From a candidate division WWE3 bacterium RIFCSPHIGHO2_02_FULL_38_14 (lineage in GTDB: Bacteria; Patescibacteriota; WWE3; UBA101185; UBA10185), in the NCBI GenBank assembly GCA_001772865.1, contig MEVD01000003.1:62812-126811 (forward strand): a stretch of 64,000 bases of DNA. Direction: 5' to 3'. This document shows positions 12,254-49,983 of this stretch, one piece after another. A program made the position numbers and the translations under genes. A model generated the notes under the pieces. It had not been told where the DNA came from and made no database searches. It was given only the letters and a program-made list of their open reading frames with translations. The number at the start of each line of letters is the position of its first letter. Within the stretch, counting starts at the first letter, position 1.

Positions 12254-12577
12254 ATGGCAAAGTCACAGAGCAAAGAGTCAAAAATCAGAATAAAGCTTAA
12301 ATCTTATGACAGCAGAATCATGGATTTAAGCTGCACAAAAATTGTTGATACAGCTATAAGAACCGGTGCAAAAGTTGTAGGGCCGGTACCTTTGCCTACA
12401 AAAATAGAGAAGTTTACAGTTATTAGAGGACCGCATATTGACAAAAGGTCGAGGGAGCAATTTGAGCTTAGAACTCACAAAAGAGTGTTGGATATTTTAA
12501 ATCCTACCGGTTCTACGATAGAAAGTCTTTCTCATTTAAGCTTACCGGCAGGTGTAGATATCTCTATAAAGATGTAA
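12254..12577 (+). CDS. rpsJ: 30S ribosomal protein S10
   Basis: 107 aa. RIKLKSYD ... GPVPLPT ... [18 protein letters not shown] are S10 hallmarks. Confidence 0.95.
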
Positions 12578-12820
12578 AAGCTTGCTCACCGCCAAGGCGG
12601 TTGCGCTTCCTTTTGCATTTTCTCTATACAAAAATGTGATGATTTCATCATCCGTACGCTTTCGCGAACTAGAAGCGTATAATACAGTTTTCATTTTCGC
12701 TACGCGAAAAAGTGACGTAACTGGGTAGATTGGTTTTTAGGCGTTTTATTGATAAAATGGGCAAGATGCATAACAGCAGAAGTTAAAAAAGCAAAAAGGG
12801 CACTTTACTATTGACGTTAA

Positions 12821-12841
12821 GGCGCCCCGGCGCCTTTTTTT
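12821..12841 (+). terminator. intrinsic terminator inside the rpsJ-rplC spacer
   Basis: GGCGCC-CCG-GCGCC GC-rich hairpin immediately followed by TTTTTTT. Confidence 0.6.
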
Positions 12842-12872
12842 ATTGATTGAATTAGAGAAATTATGAGGAACT

Positions 12873-13301
12873 ATGGAACAAATTATAAAAGGAATAAAAC
12901 AGAATATGTCACAGATTTTTCTCGAAAGCGGAAATGTAATTCCTGTCACTATTATTAAAACCGAATCGGATATTTCCGAAGATTTGTTAAATAAATCAGT
13001 AGTTCTTACAGGCAAGTCTAAAGGAAAAGGATTTGCAGGAGTAATGAAGAGATGGAATTTTGCAGGTGTCGGTGAGGCTACTAGAGGCCAGTCGAATAAA
13101 CAAAGATCGGGCGGATCAATAGGCAGTCAGACACCGGGAAGAGTGTTAAAAGGGAAAAAAATGGCAGGTAGGCTTGGAAATAAAAAAGTTACTGTAAAAG
13201 GTTTGAGAATAGTGGAAATTGCAATAGATAAAAAGGAATTAAAAGTTTCTGGACCGGTGCCTGGGGCTAGAAATTCCACAATATTTTTAAGGATATTATG
13301 A
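12873..13301 (+). CDS. rplC: 50S ribosomal protein L3 (unusually short, 142 aa)
   Basis: N-terminal region (SQIFLESGNVIPVTIIK) and C-terminal core (GKGFAGVMKRWNF, GSIGSQTPGRVLKGKKMAGRLG) match L3. About 60-70 central residues of typical L3 are absent. TGA stop overlaps the rplD ATG. Confidence 0.85.
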   Translation: MEQIIKGIKQNMSQIFLESGNVIPVTIIKTESDISEDLLNKSVVLTGKSKGKGFAGVMKRWNFAGVGEATRGQSNKQRSGGSIGSQTPGRVLKGKKMAGRLGNKKVTVKGLRIVEIAIDKKELKVSGPVPGARNSTIFLRIL

Positions 13302-13927
13302 AGTCACAAGTTTTGGATAACAAAGGAATAAAAATTGAAGACATTATATTAAGTGATGATGTATTCGGTGTTAAGCCAAAAGCGGATTTAATTGCTCAGT
13401 ATGTAAGAGTATATTTATCAAATAACAGGCAAGGTACCTCTTCTGCCAAAACAAGGGCGGAAGTATCGGGAGGCGGTAAGAAACCCTGGAAACAAAAGGG
13501 TACGGGAAGAGCCAGAGTAGGGTCTTCCAGAAATCCGCTTTGGAGACATGGGGGAATTTCCCACGGTCCCAAACCTAAAGATTGGACCTTGTATATGCCT
13601 AAAAAAATGAAGAGACTCGCAACCGTTATGGCACTTTCCTCTAAAGCACTTTCCGAAAATTTAAAAATACTTTCAGAAATAAATTTAAATAAAATTAAAA
13701 CAAAAAATATCAAAGACCTGCTGGACACTTTAAAACTAAGCGGCAGAACTTTGATAGTCACGGAAAAAAAGAATGACAACATACTAAAAAGCGTTTCCAA
13801 TTTAAAATATGTGGATTTAAGTTTTGTTGGAACTCTCAATGCTTATGAAATATTAAAGTCAAAGAACCTGGTTATATTAAAAGATGCTGTGAAAAATTTA
13901 GAGAAAAAATACCATGCAGCTAAATAA
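13298..13927 (+). CDS. rplD: 50S ribosomal protein L4
   Basis: 209 aa. Motif region GGGKKPWKQKGTGRAR and position after rplC fit L4. Confidence 0.9.
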   Translation: MKSQVLDNKGIKIEDIILSDDVFGVKPKADLIAQYVRVYLSNNRQGTSSAKTRAEVSGGGKKPWKQKGTGRARVGSSRNPLWRHGGISHGPKPKDWTLYMPKKMKRLATVMALSSKALSENLKILSEINLNKIKTKNIKDLLDTLKLSGRTLIVTEKKNDNILKSVSNLKYVDLSFVGTLNAYEILKSKNLVILKDAVKNLEKKYHAAK

Positions 13928-14213
13928 TGTTTTGCAAAAACCGGTGATTACTGAAAAAAGTGTTGCTTTAACCGACACGCAGAACAGGTATGTTTTTAAA
14001 GTTAGAAGTGATGCCACAAAAGGAAAAATAGCGGATGAAGTAGAAAAAACATTTAAAGTCGATGTTCTGGACGTTAAAACAATTATGATGCCCGGCAAAA
14101 AAAGAAGGATAGCGAAAACTTTTAGATTCAGAAAAACTAAGGGATGGAAAAAAGCGATAGTGAAAATAAAAGCAGATCAAAAAATTGACATAGTTTCCAA
14201 AGAAGGCAAGTAA
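13914..14213 (+). CDS. rplW: 50S ribosomal protein L23
   Basis: 99 aa. VLQKPVITEKS ... YVFKV fit L23. 14-nt overlap with rplD. Confidence 0.9.
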   Translation: MQLNNVLQKPVITEKSVALTDTQNRYVFKVRSDATKGKIADEVEKTFKVDVLDVKTIMMPGKKRRIAKTFRFRKTKGWKKAIVKIKADQKIDIVSKEGK

Positions 14214-14217
14214 AAAA

Positions 14218-15036
14218 ATGATAAAAACATACAACCCTACCAGCGCAGGAATAAGAACCAGAAAATCTCTCGTGAGAGAATTGTCTTTTGACAAACCCGA
14301 AAAAAAGTTAATAAAAAGTTTAAAAGGACCGGCCGGCAGAAATAAAGGTAGGATTTCAAGCAGGCACAGAGAGCGTGGCTCAAAAAAACATTACCGGATT
14401 ATTGATTTTAAGAGGAATAAGATTAATATACCGGCAAGAATCGCCTCTATTGAATATGATCCCAACAGAGGACCGAATATAGCCTTGCTTAATTATGCCG
14501 ACGGCGAAAAAAGATATATTCTTGCACCGGAGGGGTTGAAAGTTGGGATGACAGTAGTTTCAAGCGAAAAAGCCGAAGCTAATTTAGGTAATTCGCTTCC
14601 CATAGGAAATATACCTTTGGGGGTATTTGTTCATAATATAGAAATCAATCCCGGTCGGGGAGGGCAAATAGTAAGAGGAGCGGGAAATTATGCCCAAATA
14701 ATGGCTAAAGAAGGCGGTTATGTAAATATTAAGCTACCGAGCGGTGAGATTAAAAAAGTTATGGTATCATGTTATGCTACTGTTGGAGTGTTGAGTAATC
14801 CGGACTTAAGAAATGTAAGACTGGGAAAAGCAGGTAGGAATCGACATTTAGGGAACAGACCTCACATAAGAGGTGTAGCAATAGCTAATCCTTCAGATCA
14901 TCCGCACGGCGGTTCATATAAAGATTCAGGAATAGGTATGCCTTCTCCTAAATCACCGTGGGGATGGAAAACCAGAGGTGTGAGAACCAGAAAAAGAGCG
15001 CATACAAACAAGTTTATAGTGAAAAGGAGGAAATAA
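14218..15036 (+). CDS. rplB: 50S ribosomal protein L2
   Basis: 272 aa with L2 signature regions ([17 protein letters not shown]). Confidence 0.95.
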
Positions 15037-15311
15037 TGAGATCTCTGAAAAAAGGTGTCTATTTAGATGCCGGATTAATGGAAAAAGTAGTTAAAATGAA
15101 AGCTTCCAAAGCAAATAAACCCATTAAAACCTGGGCCAGAAGATCTACAGTTACCCCTGAAATGGTTGGAATGACCTTTGAAGTTCACAACGGAAAGCAG
15201 CATTTGCCTGTATATATTACCGAAGCTATGGTAGGACACAAATTAGGTGAATTTGCGCCGACCAGAAAATTTAGAGCTCATTCATCAAAGAAAGGAACCT
15301 CGGAAGCGTGA
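15036..15311 (+). CDS. rpsS: 30S ribosomal protein S19
   Basis: ATG at 15036 overlaps the rpl[15 protein letters not shown] ... [28 protein letters not shown] is the S19 core. The ORF-track extension back to 14958 lies inside rplB and is rejected. Confidence 0.92.
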
Positions 15312-15673
15312 ACAATAAAGCATTAGTTTATTCAAAATTTAATAATGCGGGAATATCGCCAAAAAAGGTTGCCCCAGTGATGGATTTAGTAAGGGGGAAA
15401 AATGCAAACGAAGCCAAACTGGTGCTTTTATTTGACAGGACAAAGGCGGGGGCGTTGCTTCTGAAAACGCTAAAATCGGCGATAGCTAACGCAAAAAATA
15501 ATTTGAATATTAATGTTGATGATTTATTTATTTCACATCTGCAAGTAAATGAAGGCCGTAAAATGAAAACGGGCATGTTTGCCGCTAAGGGCAGGTTCAG
15601 GCCATTATTAAAAAGAAGAAGCCATATAATACTGGGTTTATCTAAAAAGGAAGGTTCCAAAGGAGAAAAGTAA
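15308..15673 (+). CDS. rplV: 50S ribosomal protein L22
   Basis: 121 aa. Position and L22-like composition fit. Confidence 0.9.
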
Positions 15674-15675
15674 AA

Positions 15676-16308
15676 ATGGGACAGAAAATAAATCCTTACG
15701 GATACAGGCTAGGAATATCAAAAAACTGGATGTCCAGATGGTACTCAGACAAAAAGCAATATGGGGACATTGTGCTGGAGGATATGAAAATCAGAAAATA
15801 TTTAGAAAAAAAGTTTGAAATGGCAGGTGTTAAATCAATAGAAATTGAAAGGTCGGTTAACGAGGTAAATATTATTGTAAAAGTGGCAAAGCCGGGTGTA
15901 GTTATCGGAAAAGGCGGATCGGGAGTAGAAGATGCTGAAAAGGAACTTAAGAAAATTACCAAATCTAAAATAAGATTGACTGCAGAGGAAGTGAAAAATC
16001 CCGAAGTGGAAGCCCAGCTTGTCGCCGATTATATTTCAAGGCAGTTAAAGAGAAGACTGCCCTATAGAAGGATAGTTATAGCGGCAATTTCTTCAGCAAG
16101 AGATAAAGGCGCCAAGGGAATTAAAATAAAGCTTGCGGGACTTTTAAGCGGAGGAAACTCAATATCCAGATCTGAAACATTTTTAGACGGATCAATTCCG
16201 TCTCAAACACTAAGAGCTGATGTAGATTATGCGCAGGTTCACTGTCAGATGCTTTTCGGAACCATCGGGATTAAAGTGTGGATTTTCAAGGGAGAAGCGG
16301 TAATTTAA
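15676..16308 (+). CDS. rpsC: 30S ribosomal protein S3
   Basis: 210 aa. [14 protein letters not shown] start; KH domain; [10 protein letters not shown]. Confidence 0.95.
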
Positions 16309-16324
16309 ATACAGCTTTATATTT

Positions 16325-16732
16325 ATGTTATTACCGAAAAAGGTTAAGTTTAGAAAACAGCAGAGAGGTACAAATAGAGGGCTTGCGATCAGAGGTTCTT
16401 TTATTTCCTTCGGTGATTATGCCTTAAAATCAGTAGACAGAGGTCTTCTGACTTCCAGACAAATTGAGGCCGCCCGAAAAGCTATAAGCCATGAAACTAA
16501 AAGGGGAGGGAAGCTTTGGATAAGAGTATTTCCAGATAAAGCGGTATCAAAAAAGCCGAACGAAACAAGAATGGGGAGCGGAAAATCCCCCACGGATCAT
16601 TATGCTGCTGTCATTAAGCCGGGGAAAATAGTTTTTGAATTGGGGGGAGTTACCGAAGAAACCGCCAGAAATGCTTTTTATAAAGCATCTGCTAAACTTC
16701 CCTTAAAAATGAGGTTTATATCAAAAGAATAA
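16325..16732 (+). CDS. rplP: 50S ribosomal protein L16
   Basis: 135 aa. [15 protein letters not shown] start; RMGSGKSP. Confidence 0.95.
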
Positions 16733-16733
16733 T

Positions 16734-16949
16734 ATGAAAAGCTCTGATTTAAGAAATAAAAGTGAAAAAGAATTAAAAGATTTGATACAAAAAACCGCTA
16801 AAGAACTGGAAGATGTGGTGACTGACGTAATTAAAGGAAAAGAAAAAAATATTAGAAAAATAAGACCGCTCAAAAAAGATATTGCAAGATTAAAAACATT
16901 ACTTAGTGAAAAAGAGTTTTTGAGCAAGGGAGGAAATATTAATGCCTAA
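16734..16949 (+). CDS. rpmC: 50S ribosomal protein L29
   Basis: 71 aa helical, KE-rich. Position between rplP and rpsQ supports L29. Confidence 0.85.
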   Translation: MKSSDLRNKSEKELKDLIQKTAKELEDVVTDVIKGKEKNIRKIRPLKKDIARLKTLLSEKEFLSKGGNINA

Positions 16950-17190
16950 AAAAATGTTTAAAGGAAAAATAGTTTCGGAAAAAATGAATAAAACAGTAAT
17001 AGTTGCGGTTGAATTTCCCAAGAGACATCCCAAGTATGCAAAAAGTATTAAAAATACAAAAAGGTTTAAGGCCAGAAATGAAAAAAACATAAAATTAGGG
17101 GATATTGTTTTAATAGAAGAATCCAGACCCTACGCCAAAAATGTTAACTGGAAAGTTATAGAAATAAATCCTACCAAGAAAGAAAAATAA
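16942..17190 (+). CDS. rpsQ: 30S ribosomal protein S17
   Basis: 82 aa. GKIVSEKMNKTVIVAVE, KYAKSIKNTKRFKA. Confidence 0.9.
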   Translation: MPKKMFKGKIVSEKMNKTVIVAVEFPKRHPKYAKSIKNTKRFKARNEKNIKLGDIVLIEESRPYAKNVNWKVIEINPTKKEK

Positions 17191-17191
17191 T

Positions 17192-17557
17192 ATGTTGCAG
17201 AGAGGATCAATTATTGTACCAGCAGACAACTCGGGAGCTAAAGTGTTAAAAATCATCGGGATTCCGGGAACAAATAGAAAATCCGCGGGATTGGGCGATA
17301 TTATAACTGCAGCTGTAAACGGAGCTTCTTCTACTGGGTATGTTAAGGATCACTCGATTGTGAAAGCAATAATTGTTCGTACTAAAAAAGAAGTTAGAAG
17401 AAAGGACGGAAGCTATATCAGATTTTCGGATAATGCTGCAGTTGTAATTGATAAAGATGAAAATATGATAGGAACCAGGATTTTTGGTCCGATTGCGAGA
17501 GAAATCAGGGACAGAGGAATGCTGAAAATAGTTTCACTTGCCAAGGAGGTTTGGTAA
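17192..17557 (+). CDS. rplN: 50S ribosomal protein L14
   Basis: 121 aa. MLQRGSIIVPADNSGAKV, IFGPIAREIR. Confidence 0.95.
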   Translation: MLQRGSIIVPADNSGAKVLKIIGIPGTNRKSAGLGDIITAAVNGASSTGYVKDHSIVKAIIVRTKKEVRRKDGSYIRFSDNAAVVIDKDENMIGTRIFGPIAREIRDRGMLKIVSLAKEVW

Positions 17558-17565
17558 AAATTCTT

Positions 17566-17883
17566 ATGAGGATACATAAAGGAGATAAAGTAAAAGTTAT
17601 AACAGGAAAAGATAAAGGGAAAGAAGGTAAAGTTCTCGCGGTATATTTATCTAAAAATAAGGTGCTGATTGAAGGAGTCAACAAAGTAAAAAGGCATGTA
17701 AAGCCCGGGACAGTATCAAAAGAGGGAGGAATTGTTGTGGTTGAAAAACCGATAAATGTATCAAATGTAATGTTTATAGACAGCACGTCGGGCAATCCCG
17801 TAAGAATAGGTTTTAAGATAGTCGACGGAAAAAAATATAGAATTAACAAAAAATCGGAGGAGATTATAGGAAAGGCAAAATAA
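17566..17883 (+). CDS. rplX: 50S ribosomal protein L24
   Basis: ATG at 17566 after the rplN stop. IHKGDKVKVITGKDKGKEGKV (KOW motif). Confidence 0.9.
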   Translation: MRIHKGDKVKVITGKDKGKEGKVLAVYLSKNKVLIEGVNKVKRHVKPGTVSKEGGIVVVEKPINVSNVMFIDSTSGNPVRIGFKIVDGKKYRINKKSEEIIGKAK

Positions 17884-17924
17884 AGTTTTATTCAGCGGGA
17901 TTCGCTACTGAGGTTTTGAATAAT

Positions 17925-18470
17925 ATGGAAAACAGGTTATATAAAACATATAAAGAAAAAATGGCGCAGGATCTTAAAAAACAGTTGAGTCTGGAGAATA
18001 TTATGCAAGTGCCTAAAATAAAGAAAATTAATATTAATGCTGGTATAGGCGGTTTCAAGGAAAATCGAGAAGCAACCGAGTCTTTTATAAATGAGCTGGC
18101 TGACATAACAAGTCAAAAACCTTATTACAGGAAAGCGAGGCTTTCAGAAGCGGGTTTTAAGATAAAAAAAGGCGATGTAGTAGGGTATTCAGTAACATTA
18201 AGAGGATATAAAATGTGGGCTTTCCTCGATAAACTGATAAATATAGTGCTGCCCCGCGTCAGGGATTTCAGGGGGTTAAGCAGAGATTCTTTCGATAACA
18301 GCGGGAACTACTCGCTTGGAATTAGAGAACATGTTATATTTCCCGAAGTTAATCCTAACGCGACCAGGGGAATCAGAAGCCTGCAAGTGACAATAGTAAT
18401 GAATTCTAATAACAAAGAGAGAAATACAGCTTTGTTGGAGAAAATGGGATTTCCGTTTAAAAAGGTATAA
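17925..18470 (+). CDS. rplE: 50S ribosomal protein L5
   Basis: L5 core (RLYKTYKE..., [15 protein letters not shown]). ATG 17925 has better SD spacing than the in-frame 17916. Confidence 0.93.
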
Positions 18471-18472
18471 AA

Positions 18473-18658
18473 ATGGCAAGAAAATCTTTTATTGAAAGAC
18501 ACAAAAAACCTAAAAAATTTAAAGTGAGAGAATATAACAGGTGTTCGGTCTGCGGCAATCCCCGCGGTTATATGCGTAAATTTAAAATGTGCAGAAAATG
18601 TTTTAGGGAGCTTGTTCACAAAGGATTTCTGCCCGGAGTAAAAAAGTCAAGCTGGTAA
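18473..18658 (+). CDS. rpsN: 30S ribosomal protein S14, zinc-binding type Z
   Basis: 61 aa with [10 protein letters not shown]...CRKCFRE CxxC pairs. This is the short Zn-ribbon S14. Confidence 0.9.
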
Positions 18659-18662
18659 ATAT

Positions 18663-19061
18663 ATGTTAAATGATAGATTGGCAAATATGCTAAGTACAAT
18701 TAAAAATGCGTATGCTGTAAGCAAACCTTCTGTTGAAGTAGCGCATTCTAAACAAATTGAGGAGGTTGCAAAAGTACTTGAAAAGGCCGGTTTTCTGAAA
18801 AGTGTAAAGGTGTTTAAAGAAAGCGGGGAATCTTTTAAAAAGCTTCATATTGATTTGATATATGAGGATGGAAGGGCAAAAGTTTCAGATATTAGTCGTG
18901 TTTCAAAGCCCGGGAGAAGAGTTTACAAAAACTATCGGGATATGAAACCTGTATTAGGAGGTTTTGGAGTTTCCGTCGTATCAACTTCCAGAGGCATAAT
19001 GTCTGGTTCAGACGCTAAAAAGAGAAAGCTGGGTGGGGAAATTATTTGTACTGCCTGGTAA
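18663..19061 (+). CDS. rpsH: 30S ribosomal protein S8
   Basis: 132 aa. DRLANMLSTIKNA start region; GGEIICTAW end. Confidence 0.95.
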   Translation: MLNDRLANMLSTIKNAYAVSKPSVEVAHSKQIEEVAKVLEKAGFLKSVKVFKESGESFKKLHIDLIYEDGRAKVSDISRVSKPGRRVYKNYRDMKPVLGGFGVSVVSTSRGIMSGSDAKKRKLGGEIICTAW

Positions 19062-19068
19062 TAAAAAT

Positions 19069-19608
19069 ATGTCAAGGATAGGAAAGAAAAACATTTTGAT
19101 ACCTCATGGAGTTACGGTTTCGGTAAACGGCCAAAATGTTGAGGTAAAAGGTGTAAAAGGAAATCTTTTAGTAAAAGTGAGGCCGGAAATTAAAGTGCAG
19201 GTGGAGGACAATCTGATAAAATCCAGCATTTTAAGAGAAACTAAGGAAACGAACGCATTTTGGGGAACAACAAATGCAACTATTTTGAATGCAATAAAAG
19301 GAGTAAGCGAGGGATTTGAGAAAAAACTTGAGCTGGTAGGAGTTGGCTACAGAGCTAAATTGGACGGCAATAATCTCTCTCTTTCTTTGGGTTTTTCTCA
19401 TCCGATTGTTTTTGAGCCTATAGAGGGGATAAAATTTGTAGTTCCGGATCAGCAAAACGTAATTATAACCGGCATTGATAAACAAAAAGTTGGTTTGGTT
19501 GCTTCAAAAATTAGAAAAATAAGAAAGCCGGAACCTTACAAAGGCAAAGGTATAAAATATACAAACGAAGTTATAAGAAGAAAAGCCGGCAAGTCGGGAA
19601 AGGCGTAA
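19069..19608 (+). CDS. rplF: 50S ribosomal protein L6
   Basis: MSRIGKK start at ATG 19069 just after rpsH. Two-repeat L6 fold motifs. The upstream extension to 19033 overlaps rpsH and is rejected. Confidence 0.92.
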   Translation: MSRIGKKNILIPHGVTVSVNGQNVEVKGVKGNLLVKVRPEIKVQVEDNLIKSSILRETKETNAFWGTTNATILNAIKGVSEGFEKKLELVGVGYRAKLDGNNLSLSLGFSHPIVFEPIEGIKFVVPDQQNVIITGIDKQKVGLVASKIRKIRKPEPYKGKGIKYTNEVIRRKAGKSGKA

Positions 19609-19609
19609 T

Positions 19610-19969
19610 ATGTATAAAGTAATTTTAAGAAAAGACAGAAGAATAAAAAGAAAACTAAAAATAAGAAGCAAAATATTAGGCACATCCAAAAAACCCAGAC
19701 TGTCGGTATTCAGGTCGCTACGATATACATATGCGCAGTTAATAGATGACTCTAAAGGTAAAACTATTGTTGATATTTCCAATTCTATAAAGAAATACCA
19801 TGACGGGAAAAATAAATCACAGGCAGCCTATGAGTTGGGTAAGTTAATAGCAGAAAAAGCACTTAAAAAAGGTATTATTGAAGCAGTATTTGACAGAAAT
19901 GGTTATAGATATCACGGCAGAATCAAAAGACTAGCCGAAGGGGCGAAGGAAGGCGGTTTAAAAGTATGA
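19610..19969 (+). CDS. rplR: 50S ribosomal protein L18
   Basis: 119 aa. RLSVFRS...HIYAQLIDD-like region, C-terminal GYRYHGR. Confidence 0.92.
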   Translation: MYKVILRKDRRIKRKLKIRSKILGTSKKPRLSVFRSLRYTYAQLIDDSKGKTIVDISNSIKKYHDGKNKSQAAYELGKLIAEKALKKGIIEAVFDRNGYRYHGRIKRLAEGAKEGGLKV

Positions 19970-20412
19970 AAGAAACAAGAGAATTTAGAGAATTTGAAGA
20001 GAAAGTCATTCAAATTAAAAGAGTTTCAAAAAAAACCAGCGGCGGAAACAGTATCGGATTCAGCGCACTTGTCGTGGTGGGCGATAAAAAGGGTAGAGCA
20101 GGAGTGGGGTTAGGTAAAGCTAAAGATGTGAGTTCTGCAGTGCAGAAGGCAGTTACTCAAGCTAAAAGGAATATGGTTAAAATAAATTTAAAAAACACCA
20201 CAATTGCACACGAAGTTCATTCAAAATTCGGATCAGCGGTGGTATTTTTAAAGCCCGCCCCCAAAGGTTCGGGAATAATTGCAGGAGGAGCCGTAAGAGT
20301 AGTACTGGAATTGGTAGGCATAAAGGATATTTCGGCTAAAATGCTTGGGTCCAATAACAGATCCAGCAACTTAAATTGCGCTTTGGAGGCATTAAAAAAG
20401 CTGAAATCATAA
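19966..20412 (+). CDS. rpsE: 30S ribosomal protein S5
   Basis: 148 aa. dsRBD-like N-terminus, GSGIIAGGAVR. Confidence 0.95.
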   Translation: MKETREFREFEEKVIQIKRVSKKTSGGNSIGFSALVVVGDKKGRAGVGLGKAKDVSSAVQKAVTQAKRNMVKINLKNTTIAHEVHSKFGSAVVFLKPAPKGSGIIAGGAVRVVLELVGIKDISAKMLGSNNRSSNLNCALEALKKLKS

Positions 20413-20430
20413 AATTTCAGGAATTAATAT

Positions 20431-20880
20431 ATGAATCTAAATGAATTAAGAAAAATAAGCGGAAATAAAAGACCATCTAAAAGGATCGGCCGCGGCAGAG
20501 GCAGCGGTAAAGGAATGCATACTGTCGGAAGAGGAAATAAAGGCCAGAAATCCAGAAAAGGCTATAATTTACCAATAGGATTTGAAGGAGGACAGGTGCC
20601 TTTATATAAGCGTCTTCCCACTATGGGAGGTTTTAAAAATCCGTTGTCAAAAGATATAATAATTGTAAAACTCTCTATGTTGAATGACTTTAAGGAAGGA
20701 AGTGAAATTACGCCTCAGCTTTTATTAAAGAGCGGGATTATAAAAAGAATCCCTAAATTCGGAGTTAAACTGCTGGGCAACGGAAAACTAACTAAAAAAT
20801 TGACACTAAAAGGATTTTTAGTTTCAGACTCTGCCGGTAAGAAAATACAAAAAGCCGGAGCAATACTGTTAAATGCTTAA
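20431..20880 (+). CDS. rplO: 50S ribosomal protein L15
   Basis: 149 aa. KRIGRGRGSGKG, GFEGGQVPLYKRLP. It directly follows rpsE; no L30 gene intervenes. Confidence 0.92.
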   Translation: MNLNELRKISGNKRPSKRIGRGRGSGKGMHTVGRGNKGQKSRKGYNLPIGFEGGQVPLYKRLPTMGGFKNPLSKDIIIVKLSMLNDFKEGSEITPQLLLKSGIIKRIPKFGVKLLGNGKLTKKLTLKGFLVSDSAGKKIQKAGAILLNA

Positions 20881-22129
20881 ATTTTTAAAAATTCCCGAAA
20901 TCCGCAGGAGGATTTTATTTACTCTGGGTGTTATTTTCGTTTTTAGGTTACTTGCTCATATACCTGTTCCCGGTGTTGATTCCAGTGCTCTGAAAAGTTA
21001 TTTAGAAGGCAGTACATTATTCGGACTTTTTGACCTTTTCAGCGGAGGCGGTTTTCAGAATTTTTCTATTGTTACAATGGGCTTAAACCCATATATTAAT
21101 GCTTCAATTATTATTCAGCTGTTTACAATGATGGTTCCCAGCCTGGAGGAACTGTCAAAAGAAGGCGAAACCGGGAGAGAAAAAATCAACATGTATACCA
21201 GGCTTCTTTCGGTACCAATTGCTCTACTGCAGTCATATGGTGTATATTTTCTGCTTTCGAAACAAGGTGTTATAAATACACTTAATCCTATTCAGCTTAT
21301 AGTTCTGGTTCTGACACTTTCAGCCGGGACCATGATTCTAATGTGGATCGGCGAGTTGGTTACTGAGTATGGAGTGGGAAACGGAATTTCTTTATTAATA
21401 TTTGTAGGTATTATAAGCAGACTGCCGTTAACATCTGCCCAGTTTGTTACCACCTTAAATCCTGAAAACCTTCCGAACTTAATTATATTTTTAGCTATAT
21501 CACTGTTTATAATTATGGGGGTTGTGATTGTGAATGAGGGAACGAGAAATATTCCATTGGAATATGGCAGATCGGGCCAGAAGTCCCAGAAAGTTACTAA
21601 TTACTTGCCTATTAAAATTAATCAAGCCGGAGTTATTCCGATTATTTTTGCTGTTTCCGTTGTATTGATTCCGTCGCTGATAAGCACTCCTATGCAGTCT
21701 TCGTCTAATGCTTTTTTAAGTAATTTAGGAACTTATTTAACAGCTAACTTTAACCCGAACTCGGTTTTATATAACGTTATTTATTTTGTTCTTGTGGTGG
21801 GATTTACTTATTTTTATACTACCGTTCAATTCAATCCCGAAAAAATATCAGATGATATTAAGAAGCGCGGTGGGTTTGTTCCGGGAATTAGGCCGGGAAA
21901 AAACACCACGGACTATTTAAAAGCCGTAATAACCAGAATAACCCTGGCAGGCGCATTATTTTTAGGTGCAATCGCCATCCTTCCCTATTTGGTGAACCAA
22001 TTTACAGGTGTGTCCACTTTTTCCGTCGGCGGTACCGGGCTTTTAATTGTAGTGTCGGTTATCTTGGAAACAATCAGACAAATGGAATCGATGGTTGTAA
22101 CCAAAAATTATAATAAGTTTCTGGAATAA
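20873..22129 (+). CDS. secY: preprotein translocase subunit SecY
   Basis: 418 aa, 10 TM. SecY-type motifs (GLNPYINASII, GISLLIF). Confidence 0.95.
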   Translation: MLKFLKIPEIRRRILFTLGVIFVFRLLAHIPVPGVDSSALKSYLEGSTLFGLFDLFSGGGFQNFSIVTMGLNPYINASIIIQLFTMMVPSLEELSKEGETGREKINMYTRLLSVPIALLQSYGVYFLLSKQGVINTLNPIQLIVLVLTLSAGTMILMWIGELVTEYGVGNGISLLIFVGIISRLPLTSAQFVTTLNPENLPNLIIFLAISLFIIMGVVIVNEGTRNIPLEYGRSGQKSQKVTNYLPIKINQAGVIPIIFAVSVVLIPSLISTPMQSSSNAFLSNLGTYLTANFNPNSVLYNVIYFVLVVGFTYFYTTVQFNPEKISDDIKKRGGFVPGIRPGKNTTDYLKAVITRITLAGALFLGAIAILPYLVNQFTGVSTFSVGGTGLLIVVSVILETIRQMESMVVTKNYNKFLE

Positions 22130-22149
22130 TCTCGTAGTATAATTATAAA

Positions 22150-22416
22150 ATGCTCGATAAACTTAAAGATTTAAACAAATTAAGAAAAGCTCAGTCAGAA
22201 ATCAAAAAACAACTTGAACAGATATATATATCCTCAGAAAAAAATGATATGTCTGTTTTAATCAGAGGAGACAAAAAAATCGAGAGACTGGTTGTGGACG
22301 GGGAAGAAAACAAGGAATTAAAAGATTTTTTAAATGTAGCTTTAAAAGAAGTTGACAAAAAAGTAGAAAAACAGATGAGAGGCCAGCTAGGTGATTTGGG
22401 AATTCCGGGTCTTTAA
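22150..22416 (+). CDS. YbaB/EbfC family nucleoid-associated DNA-binding protein
   Basis: 88 aa, helical. C-terminal GDLGIPGL tail is typical of the YbaB family. Confidence 0.65.
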   Translation: MLDKLKDLNKLRKAQSEIKKQLEQIYISSEKNDMSVLIRGDKKIERLVVDGEENKELKDFLNVALKEVDKKVEKQMRGQLGDLGIPGL

Positions 22417-22433
22417 TTTTTAAAATTATATTT

Positions 22434-23057
22434 ATGAAGTTTTTAATAGTAGGTCCGCAGGGCTCGGGCAAAGGAACAATCGGAGAAATGCTTAGCAAGC
22501 GCCTGGGTATTCCGCTGATTTCGGTCGGAGATATACTTAGAGATCTGCCGAAAGACCACCCAAAATATCAAGAAGTTCAAGATACAATAAACGGAGGGAA
22601 TTTAGCTCCGGTGGAAATTGTAGGGGAATTACTTAAGGAAAGGGTTTCTAAATCTGATTGTACTAACGGCTTTATTTTTGATGGCTGGGCGCGAAGACTT
22701 AAAGATATAGAATATTTTGATCCTGGTTTTGATAAAGTTATTTTATTAAATATTTCCCCCGGTACGTCGGTTAAAAGACTCTCTTCTAGGCGTACTTGTG
22801 AAAATTGTGGCAGTATTTTCAACATTGAAACGGTAAAGCCAAAAGTTGAAAACGTATGTGATGTATGCGGTGGAATGTTATTGCAAAGAGATGATGATAA
22901 GCCTGAAGCAATAATAAAAAGACTTGATATTTTTAATGAGGAGACAATGCCGGTAATTGATTACTTTCGAAAGAAAGGAGTGCTTTTAGAAATTAATGCC
23001 GAAACCTTACCCGAAGAAATTTTTGAAAATGTACTAAGAGCACTGAATAAAAATTGA
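22434..23057 (+). CDS. adk: adenylate kinase (zinc-binding lid type)
   Basis: P-loop GPQGSGKGT. LID with CxxC...CxxC (CENCGS...CDVCGG). Confidence 0.93.
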   Translation: MKFLIVGPQGSGKGTIGEMLSKRLGIPLISVGDILRDLPKDHPKYQEVQDTINGGNLAPVEIVGELLKERVSKSDCTNGFIFDGWARRLKDIEYFDPGFDKVILLNISPGTSVKRLSSRRTCENCGSIFNIETVKPKVENVCDVCGGMLLQRDDDKPEAIIKRLDIFNEETMPVIDYFRKKGVLLEINAETLPEEIFENVLRALNKN

Positions 23058-23803
23058 TTTCAATAAAAACCCCTGAACAGCTTGATAAAATGAAAGAGGG
23101 TGGAATGATATCCGCAAATGCAGTAAAAGAAGTTTTAAACTATTTGAAACCGGGAGTAAAGACAATAGAATTAGAAAGGATTGCGGAGAAATATATTTTA
23201 AGCAAAGGAGGCAAACCGTCTTTTAAAACCGTGCCGGGCTATAATTATACTACCTGTATTAATATAAATGAAGGTATAGTACACGGTCTGCCGAATAATT
23301 ACGAAATTAAACGAGGCGATATAGTAAGTATAGATTTAGGAGTTTATTTTAAGGGATTTCATACCGATATTTCCTATACGTCAGAAGTTGAAACTCAAAA
23401 GGAAAAGGAATTTCTTAACACCGGCAAAAAGGCTTTAGACGGAGCGATTTCAAAATGCGTCGAAGGAAACACCTTGGGCGATATAGGATATGTAATACAA
23501 AATGTTGTAAAGAGTCATAATTGTTCGGTTTCAAGAGAATTAGTAGGACACGGGATAGGAAAAGAACTTCACGAGTCTCCATATGTCCCGGGATATGGAA
23601 AAAGAGGTCACGGGTCTAAATTGAAAGAGGGAATGGTTTTTGCGATAGAAGTTATATATCAAAAGGGCAAACCCGACTTAGCGCTGGATAAAGACGGCTG
23701 GACTTTAATAACAAAAGATCACAGCCTCTCAGCTCTATTTGAACATACCGTGATTATAGGGAAAAACAACCCTCTGGTGATAACCGATTCACATTTTACC
23801 TAA
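23054..23803 (+). CDS. map: type I methionine aminopeptidase
   Basis: 249 aa. Metal-ligand context (D..D..H..E..E pita-bread fold motifs: DIVSIDLG, HGIGKELHE, FAIE). Confidence 0.93.
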   Translation: MISIKTPEQLDKMKEGGMISANAVKEVLNYLKPGVKTIELERIAEKYILSKGGKPSFKTVPGYNYTTCININEGIVHGLPNNYEIKRGDIVSIDLGVYFKGFHTDISYTSEVETQKEKEFLNTGKKALDGAISKCVEGNTLGDIGYVIQNVVKSHNCSVSRELVGHGIGKELHESPYVPGYGKRGHGSKLKEGMVFAIEVIYQKGKPDLALDKDGWTLITKDHSLSALFEHTVIIGKNNPLVITDSHFT

Positions 23804-26947: not shown

Positions 26948-26994
26948 ACCTGATTTTTAGGATTGCCGGACAATATTGAAGGAGTATAAAAAGT

Positions 26995-27260
26995 ATGAAC
27001 TTATGTGTTATTAGGACAGGTTATGTCGGCCTTGTAGGGGCCGCTATTTTTGCCGAAAGAGAAAATAATGTTGCTGGAGTACGGTCTGCATATTGACTGA
27101 ATGGGACGAGTTTAAAGAACTGGATTTGGCTAGAACTAAATCTTTGATGAAAAAGCCCATTTTATTTGACGGAAGGAATTTGCTAAAACAAAAGGAGGTA
27201 GAGGGAGCAGGTTTCGTTTATTTCGCTTTCGGAAAAAAGATACGGAAGAAGCGGATATAA
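26995..27260 (+). pseudogene. ugd: UDP-glucose 6-dehydrogenase (ugd) remnant: N-terminal about 30 aa plus C-terminal about 53 aa, internal deletion and frameshift
   Basis: MNLCVIRTGYVGLVGAAIFAE is the Ugd N-terminal NAD-binding motif. After a TGA at 27094, a different frame reads EWDEFKELDL...KKPILFDGRNLL...GFVYFAFGKK, which is the Ugd C-terminus. The roughly 330-aa middle is missing. Confidence 0.7.
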
Positions 27261-27281
27261 TAAGAACAGCGGTGCTTCAGA

Positions 27282-49212: not shown

Positions 49213-49983
49213 GTGACTGAGATTATCTTTAATGTGGCAAACGCTTTTCCTATTGGGGCGTTCAGGATGGGGAAGGTGATAGAGATCGTACTAGCTGATG
49301 GGTACGATCGCGTAAGTGTACTGCCCACATGGGGTTTACCAGCCCAGAATTTCAAATTAAGCCCCTGGATTCGATGCGCGGAACAGCCTTGGAACCCCGG
49401 ATCGCCTTGGGCATGGTTTCATGGTTTTATGACGCGCAACTTAAAAAGTCCGAGGCTTCATGATGTGCTCCTTTTTCCTTGATATAAAGAGTGGTGGATG
49501 CCACTTTGGGAGCGGATCAAGAGGTGGGGTGCAACTCCATTTGTTCACTCATATGCGGAGGTACCTGGGCTAGTTGAAGTTCACCCTGCAATGAGATTGA
49601 GTGGCGAATCCGCCGTTGCGATGGCTGAGGTGACTAACAGGCTGCTTGTTTTCGACACGATGCATGCTGTCCGTGGGCTTCGACCGGGAGATTTGAAGCC
49701 TGGTGAATCTCTGGATAGTAAGCTTGGGGATTGGTGATTGTGGATGGGAGTCGCCGTGGCGACTAACAGACTCGGATTATTCGATTTTCACCCGACTCCT
49801 ACACAATTAGCCAAAGGCGAGTTGGATGAGCCGCTTTCAATGCTCAGATTCGCCCTGAACCGCGGGTACAAAGGTCCCATACGCGTCGAAGCGGTGTTAC
49901 CCAGGCTTGTCGACCAAGCGGTTCACTGGCGTCTAGTTGCCCACCGAATGCTCAACCTTGTACACAACGAGCTCGAATCCTAA
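49213..49983 (+). other. GC-rich island ORF: 257-codon frame with strong SD and GTG start, interrupted only by two in-frame TGA codons (49480-49482, 49735-49737). Candidate UGA-recoded gene, very recent pseudogene, or structured RNA.
   Basis: Three consecutive ORF-track ORFs (49213-49482, 49498-49737, 49738-49983) lie in the same frame. AAGGAGAGG sits 6 nt before the GTG. An upstream TAG closes the frame at 49189. Local GC is far above the flanking sequence. No recognisable protein family. Confidence 0.3.

Follow-up and report, generated by a model that had tools for sequence, protein, structure and literature searches.

Canonical spc operons carry the gene for ribosomal protein uL30, rpmD, between rpsE and rplO. 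The locus described here belongs to a stretch of 64,000 nucleotides of DNA that was analysed as a whole and is called the window below, and it raises the question of whether that gene is truly missing and what its absence can say about the bacterium in which the operon is found. A preliminary description had put the stop of rpsE at 20412 and the start of rplO at 20431, with 18 nt between them, and these coordinates are exact. The features around the junction are the following.

12254 to 23803, forward strand: the S10-spc cluster as a whole, delimited from the list of open reading frames, from Pfam searches on ten proteins tested and from precomputed Pfam matches on two contigs of the same genome (L001 and L088).
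19610 to 19969, forward strand: rplR (uL18), 119 aa; Pfam Ribosomal_L18p, E=1.5e-38; TIGR00060, 119.6 bits against a cut-off of 87.85.
19966 to 20412, forward strand: rpsE (uS5), 148 aa; Pfam Ribosomal_S5, E=5e-25, and S5_C, E=8e-23; TIGR01021 (rpsE_bact), 177.8 bits against a cut-off of 164.05.
20413 to 20430, forward strand: the rpsE-rplO spacer, 18 nt read directly (AATTTCAGGAATTAATAT), containing an AGGA Shine-Dalgarno motif.
20431 to 20880, forward strand: rplO (uL15), 149 aa; Pfam Ribosomal_L27A, E=1.2e-11; TIGR01071 (rplO_bact), 137.1 bits against a cut-off of 77.95.
20873 to 22129, forward strand: secY, 418 aa; Pfam SecY, E=1.9e-103.

The spacer at 20413-20430 occupies the place that rpmD holds in canonical spc operons, and there is indeed no room for the gene, as had been claimed, since 18 nt stand against the ~55-60 codons that it would need. 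A spacing of this size is ordinary for the cluster, where spacers have a median of 1 nt and overlaps of 4-14 nt occur between several genes; the stop of rplR overlaps the start of rpsE (ATGA) and rplO overlaps the start of secY by 8 nt. S5 and L15 are both full length, both exceed their NCBIfam equivalog cut-offs, and neither S5 (148 aa) nor L15 (149 aa) has a compensating extension. The start codon of rplO is right because residue 2 of the protein aligns at position 1 of the TIGR01071 profile. Its AGGA Shine-Dalgarno motif lies 6-7 nt 5' of the ATG, inside an uninterrupted same-strand cluster, and L15 would be translated off the same polycistronic mRNA through this motif of its own.

The open reading frames and the Pfam matches bear out both halves of the first observation, namely that rpmD is absent between rpsE and rplO and that the rest of the spc order is canonical. 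The S10-spc cluster reads rpsJ, rplC, rplD, rplW, rplB, rpsS, rplV, rpsC, rplP, rpmC, rpsQ, rplN, rplX, rplE, rpsZ, rpsH, rplF, rplR, rpsE, rplO, secY, a ybaB-like gene, adk and map, and is preceded on the same strand by lepB, rpoB, rpoC, rpsL, rpsG, fusA and tuf. The surroundings of the cluster have their own peculiarities: it is lepB, not rplKAJL, that precedes rpoB (the public gene call for lepB is 187 aa long and the gene delimited here 191 aa, with different starts), map is followed by a gene for a CAP-domain protein, the block infA-rpmJ-rpsM-rpsK-rpsD-rpoA-rplQ is missing there, and infA is found by itself, in the opposite orientation, ~10 kb upstream of rpoB on a contig of the same genome (L088).

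An operon of this kind has been described before. The passage of Tsurumaki et al. (2022, 10.1101/2022.01.07.475337) that cites Brown et al. (2015) states that all CPR bacteria are without L30 and that S5 adjoins L15 in CPR genomes. L30 was found in 0 of 69 complete CPR genomes, and it was wholly absent from CPR genomes in an analysis of 897 complete and draft genomes (10.1101/2022.01.07.475337; PMC6744442); the families missing across CPR include L30 (Méheust et al. 2019, PMC6744442). The literature thus agrees with the preliminary description in treating universal loss of L30 as a published hallmark of CPR (10.1101/2022.01.07.475337; PMC6744442). Beyond L30, WWE3 is without L9, and CPR bacteria tend to have smaller versions of S14, L3 and L15 (Tsurumaki et al. 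2022, 10.1101/2022.01.07.475337). We consider that the locus is very probably an ordinary S10-spc cluster of a WWE3 (Katanobacteria) bacterium of the CPR, from groundwater of the Rifle aquifer, which has no rpmD, like all CPR genomes described. The L30-less junction between S5 and L15 in this contig is a correct but ordinary case of a trait that is already known; with the absence of L30 from CPR and the adjacency of S5 and L15 both published, it adds no new biology.

The gene might nevertheless have moved out of the spc operon to some other part of the genome, possibly in divergent form. The L30 proteins of E. coli, B. subtilis and T. thermophilus, used as tblastn probes, found no L30 in the 64-kb window, where the best match had E=1.4. 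A hidden Markov model (HMM) was built from the three probes and the L30 of a control locus in a Clostridiales metagenome-assembled genome (MAG; L067) and was run, unfiltered, on all six reading frames of the window and 88 loci, taking each stretch between stops that was 25 aa or longer. It had no match in the window (best E=3.4), and no other score in the window or the 88 loci was better than E=2, apart from that of the positive control, whose L30 was recovered at E=8e-34 by HMM and at E=3e-14 by tblastn. The probes work, because the control scored E=8e-34. The four widest intergenic gaps of the window, translated in six frames, had no match to Ribosomal_L30 (Pfam PF00327), and there was no L30 in ~19 kb of flanking sequence from the same genome. 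These flanks comprise ~9 kb upstream (L088), with infA, serS, a spermine synthase-like gene, bacA, secA, rsmB and a TPR protein, and 10 kb downstream (L086), with further glycosylation genes.

The search was also extended to relatives. With each GTDB species represented by one genome, a scan gave 80 loci with relatives of S5 at 49-67% identity, and L30 was undetectable by tblastn and HMM within 3 kb of S5 in 79 of them. The sole exception was the Clostridiales MAG that served as control, with the canonical order S5-L30-L15, and in every locus of the CPR clade that was examined rpsE is followed directly by rplO, without L30 nearby. In seven relatives S5 and L15 seemed to lie 170-360 nt apart, and a divergent L30 might have been hidden in between. 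Six of these gaps proved to be tails of S5, and the seventh came from an offset in how tblastn had aligned L15; the tails are C-terminal, rich in K and E and 60-100 aa long, in proteins of 211-249 aa from Parcubacteria- or Peribacteria-like loci (L012, L013, L031, L058, L072 and L074).

In total, ~83 kb of a genome that is likely near 1 Mb were searched and found free of L30, with absence from the genome as a whole inferred from the literature; the genes for bL9 and uL1 and their usual neighbourhoods lie outside the ~83 kb. That only this part was searched leaves space for a relocated rpmD, and other translation genes are indeed displaced in this genome: infA lies on the opposite strand ~10 kb before rpoB, map is not followed by an alpha operon and rpoB is not preceded by rplKAJL. 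Relocation is nonetheless very unlikely, since the published surveys of 69 complete genomes and of 897 complete and draft genomes are without L30 in CPR, and no locus of the CPR clade examined has L30 near S5 and L15.

A different reading is that the protein has a substitute, either a small protein that is not homologous and has gone unrecognised or added sequence on one of the neighbouring ribosomal proteins. One candidate is the following frame.

22150 to 22416, forward strand: a YbaB/EbfC-like open reading frame between secY and adk, 88 aa; Pfam, E=5e-4; TIGR00103, 21.9 bits against a cut-off of 49.45, E=1.5e-4.

Public gene calls assign no Pfam family to this frame. Its lack of a confident family and the lineage-specific insertions borne by CPR ribosomal proteins (10.1101/2022.01.07.475337) both speak for a substitute. 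The frame does, however, resemble the YbaB/EbfC nucleoid proteins in Pfam and in TIGR00103, S5 and L15 are unextended, and no replacement is required, L30 being a surface protein that joins late in assembly, is often lost and is dispensable in other bacteria (10.1101/2021.01.31.429008). Such a substitution is therefore very improbable. A somewhat wider form of the idea, in which the uL30 site of the 50S subunit is filled by any element that homology would not recognise, be it a small protein peculiar to the lineage, for which the 88-aa frame is a candidate, or an extension of rRNA or protein, we would rate as very improbable too; if it were true, the "loss" would be a replacement. The region of 5S rRNA near loop E that binds L30 is still retained in CPR (10.1101/2022.01.07.475337), and a literature search found no structure of a CPR ribosome. 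If the locus is an ordinary CPR operon, as we prefer to read it, its 50S subunit would be assembled without uL30 and, to go by the literature, its ribosome would function without that protein.

How far the missing gene identifies the organism is a separate matter. Independent losses of L30 have been reported in Mollicutes, Halanaerobiales, Blattabacterium, Neorickettsia, Portiera, Riesia and Blochmannia (COG-based preprint, 10.1101/2021.01.31.429008), and among the relatives collected here there are seven loci from Campylobacterota MAGs in which 9-18 nt lie between S5 and L15 and L30 is absent within 3 kb. Consequently, the inference of a CPR origin rests on phylogeny and not on the gap, because Campylobacterota and the published non-CPR lineages are also without L30. 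A tree was calculated from L5-S8-L6-L18-S5-L15-SecY of the window and the 80 loci (81 taxa, 1272 trimmed columns), by neighbour-joining on Kimura protein distances with 200 bootstraps; the seven proteins are linked, the taxa were picked by similarity of S5 and only eight of the loci are non-CPR. Nearest to the window, at 58-61% identity over the concatenation, are three named WWE3 MAGs (L006, L008 and L020) and six third-party assemblies labelled "Saccharibacteria", and the ten-member clade of the window and these nine was recovered in 200/200 bootstraps. Phylogenetic placement, proposed as a check in the preliminary description, thus puts the window in a WWE3 clade, and the seven-protein concatenation supports its assignment to WWE3, a CPR phylum. 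The deeper split between CPR and non-CPR appeared in only 63% of bootstraps, with the Campylobacterota and Clostridiales loci branching far from the window.

The proteins of the window also occur, identical, on MEVE01000008.1 (GCA_001772885.1), on MEVG01000013.1 (GCA_001772935.1) and in assemblies of Rifle-aquifer samples; judging by the order of the accessions, the MEVE and MEVG contigs belong to a WWE3 accession series. They fall between MEVA (WWE3 RIFCSPHIGHO2_01_FULL_42_13, taxid 1802617; L008) and MEWG (WWE3 RIFOXYD1_FULL_39_9, taxid 1802649; L020), which are 32 steps apart both in accession and in taxid, and on this parallel MEVE would correspond to taxid 1802621, WWE3 RIFCSPHIGHO2_12_FULL_38_15, and MEVG to RIFCSPLOWO2_01_FULL_37_24. 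Many third-party (TPA_asm) records among the loci L005-L084 bear the titles "Gammaproteobacteria", "Pseudomonadales", "Saccharibacteria", "Clostridia" and "Eisenbacteria" and sit inside Microgenomates, WWE3 or Parcubacteria clades, and their taxonomic labels look unreliable.

It has to be asked, then, whether the organism could be a non-CPR member of some L30-less lineage (Mollicutes, Campylobacterota, Halanaerobiales or an insect endosymbiont) that lost the gene independently. The recurrence of L30 loss outside CPR and the seven Campylobacterota loci with the same short gap and no L30 within 3 kb would allow it, but the closest relatives are WWE3 MAGs at 58-61% identity in a clade with 100% bootstrap, the Campylobacterota and Clostridiales loci branch far off, and identical proteins occur in assemblies that the accession order suggests to be of the WWE3 series, so that this reading is extremely unlikely. 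The CPR-like origin proposed at the outset therefore stands, since phylogeny makes the contig one of CPR (WWE3), whereas the L30 gap taken alone is not diagnostic, Campylobacterota having the same junction. Absence of L30 is necessary, and not sufficient, for calling a genome CPR.

The least tenable explanation is that an assembly or sequencing artefact, a mis-join or a collapsed region, dropped rpmD, which can practically be dismissed, as ENA, JGI and NCBI contigs from independent assemblies share the junction, as do all related CPR loci, and the frames on either side are intact up to the ends of their profiles. An identical S5 protein is recorded on 23 contigs read, from several samples (ENA, JGI and NCBI sources), and among these contigs L15 starts 18 nt after the S5 stop in 4/4 places listed; the junction is no accident of assembly, because it recurs on contigs from several samples.

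The preliminary description had drawn further support for a CPR-like origin from a zinc-type S14, a short L3 and AT-rich, compact gene packing, and each of these is present. The DNA has 35.9% GC and is ~95% coding. The two genes are as follows.

18473 to 18658, forward strand: rpsN/rpsZ, S14 of type Z (zinc, CxxC...CxxC), 61 aa with four Cys in the translation; NF005974, 100.7 bits against a cut-off of 77.
12873 to 13301, forward strand: rplC (uL3), short form, 142 aa; TIGR03625, 132.3 bits, below the cut-off of 142.9.

The S14 gene is missing from the gene calls shown for 4/4 public contigs (L001-L004), where an uncalled gap lies between L5 and S8. A longer N-terminus for L3 is impossible, because the stop-to-stop frame opens at 12867, and residues 41-140 of the protein align to positions 103-202 of TIGR03625. 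Compared with the bacterial profile, the shortening is, by this alignment, an internal deletion of ~60 residues. Short forms of L3, of 132-155 aa, are common to relatives at 53-67% identity. Strict rule-based annotation could leave L3 unnamed, because the score falls under the TIGR03625 cut-off.

The start of rplC has a second unusual feature. The rpsJ-rplC spacer (12578-12872, 295 nt) is the only long one in the cluster and contains a terminator-like hairpin at 12819-12836, AAGGCGCC-CC-GGCGCCTT, followed by a T7 run to 12843, 30 nt before the start of rplC. This site (12819-12843) is the strongest of its kind in the 13-kb region scanned. Spacers of 57-210 nt separate rpsJ from rplC in all metagenome relatives with a short L3 (L089-L102 and L117); in loci with an L3 of ~205-215 aa most of these spacers measure roughly 1-40 nt. 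An equivalent GC-rich hairpin and T-run stand shortly 5' of rplC in 12 of 14 relatives, with varying stems (GAGCC/GGCTC, GCCCC/GGGGC and CGGG/CCCG). The hairpins are clear only with each sequence folded or searched singly, as the MAFFT alignment is poor and the consensus fold has three pairs. The structure may be a lineage-conserved terminator, or an attenuator or leader of the rplC operon. The S10 leader of E. coli has an attenuator controlled by L4; the hairpin is reminiscent of it, but is placed after rpsJ. No Rfam family matched the hairpin. At gathering thresholds Rfam gave nothing in the whole window, and isrK (E=0.84), the only match in two sub-regions scanned at E<=1, is a chance one; ARAGORN found no tRNA or tmRNA in the window.

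Outside the ribosomal cluster, two stretches of the window record gene decay.

49213 to 49983, forward strand: a pseudogene interrupted by TGA codons, one frame of 256 codons with a Shine-Dalgarno sequence, a GTG start and no Pfam match.
26948 to 27281, two frames: fragments of a UDP-glucose/GDP-mannose dehydrogenase in a 334-nt gap; C-terminal UDP-binding domain, E=6e-8; N-terminal NAD-binding domain, E=2e-3.

The first has a GC content of ~52%, against 36% for the contig, and its frame is broken twice by TGA (49480-49482 and 49735-49737). A full-length, uninterrupted homolog (P0001, 63% identical) has W and R in their place, and a variant (P0002, 99% identical) has R at the second. Recoding of TGA was considered and rejected, given W and R in the homologs and the 16 ordinary genes of the window that end in TGA. 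By its sequence, the frame is a decaying gene of a rare, uncharacterised family, and it is probably foreign DNA. The second stretch is the relic of a largely deleted dehydrogenase gene. An island of glycosyltransferase and polysaccharide genes extends from 25068 to beyond the end of the window (64000, into L086), over ~40 kb or more, which is large for a reduced CPR genome. It holds many GT2 and GT4 genes, PMT/GT-C-like membrane proteins, flippases, sugar-nucleotide enzymes and a B12-binding radical SAM protein, and its downstream part includes an AftD-like GT-C of 1179 aa.

For annotation, the missing rpmD together with the phylogeny is a taxonomic flag for WWE3 and CPR, and leads one to expect a genome that is reduced, ribosomes that are unusual and a symbiotic way of life; by itself it should not serve to call CPR. 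Measured against the canonical spc operon of E. coli and B. subtilis (rplN-rplX-rplE-rpsN-rpsH-rplF-rplR-rpsE-rpmD-rplO-secY), the window has the same order and orientation for all other genes and differs in being without rpmD, in the ybaB-like frame between secY and adk and in having no infA...rplQ block after map; adk and map follow secY, as in the B. subtilis operon. With the L30-less bacteria outside CPR (Mollicutes, Halanaerobiales, Blattabacterium, Neorickettsia, Portiera and others) it shares the loss of the same protein, but those losses are independent and in unrelated lineages, and the window groups with none of them in the tree. The CPR spc operon without rpmD is the closest match, with S5 followed by L15, a small zinc S14, a shortened L3 and a compact, AT-rich genome. 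Nothing material separates the two at the junction, and the one local oddity, the 295-nt rpsJ-rplC spacer with its terminator-like hairpin, is common to close relatives.
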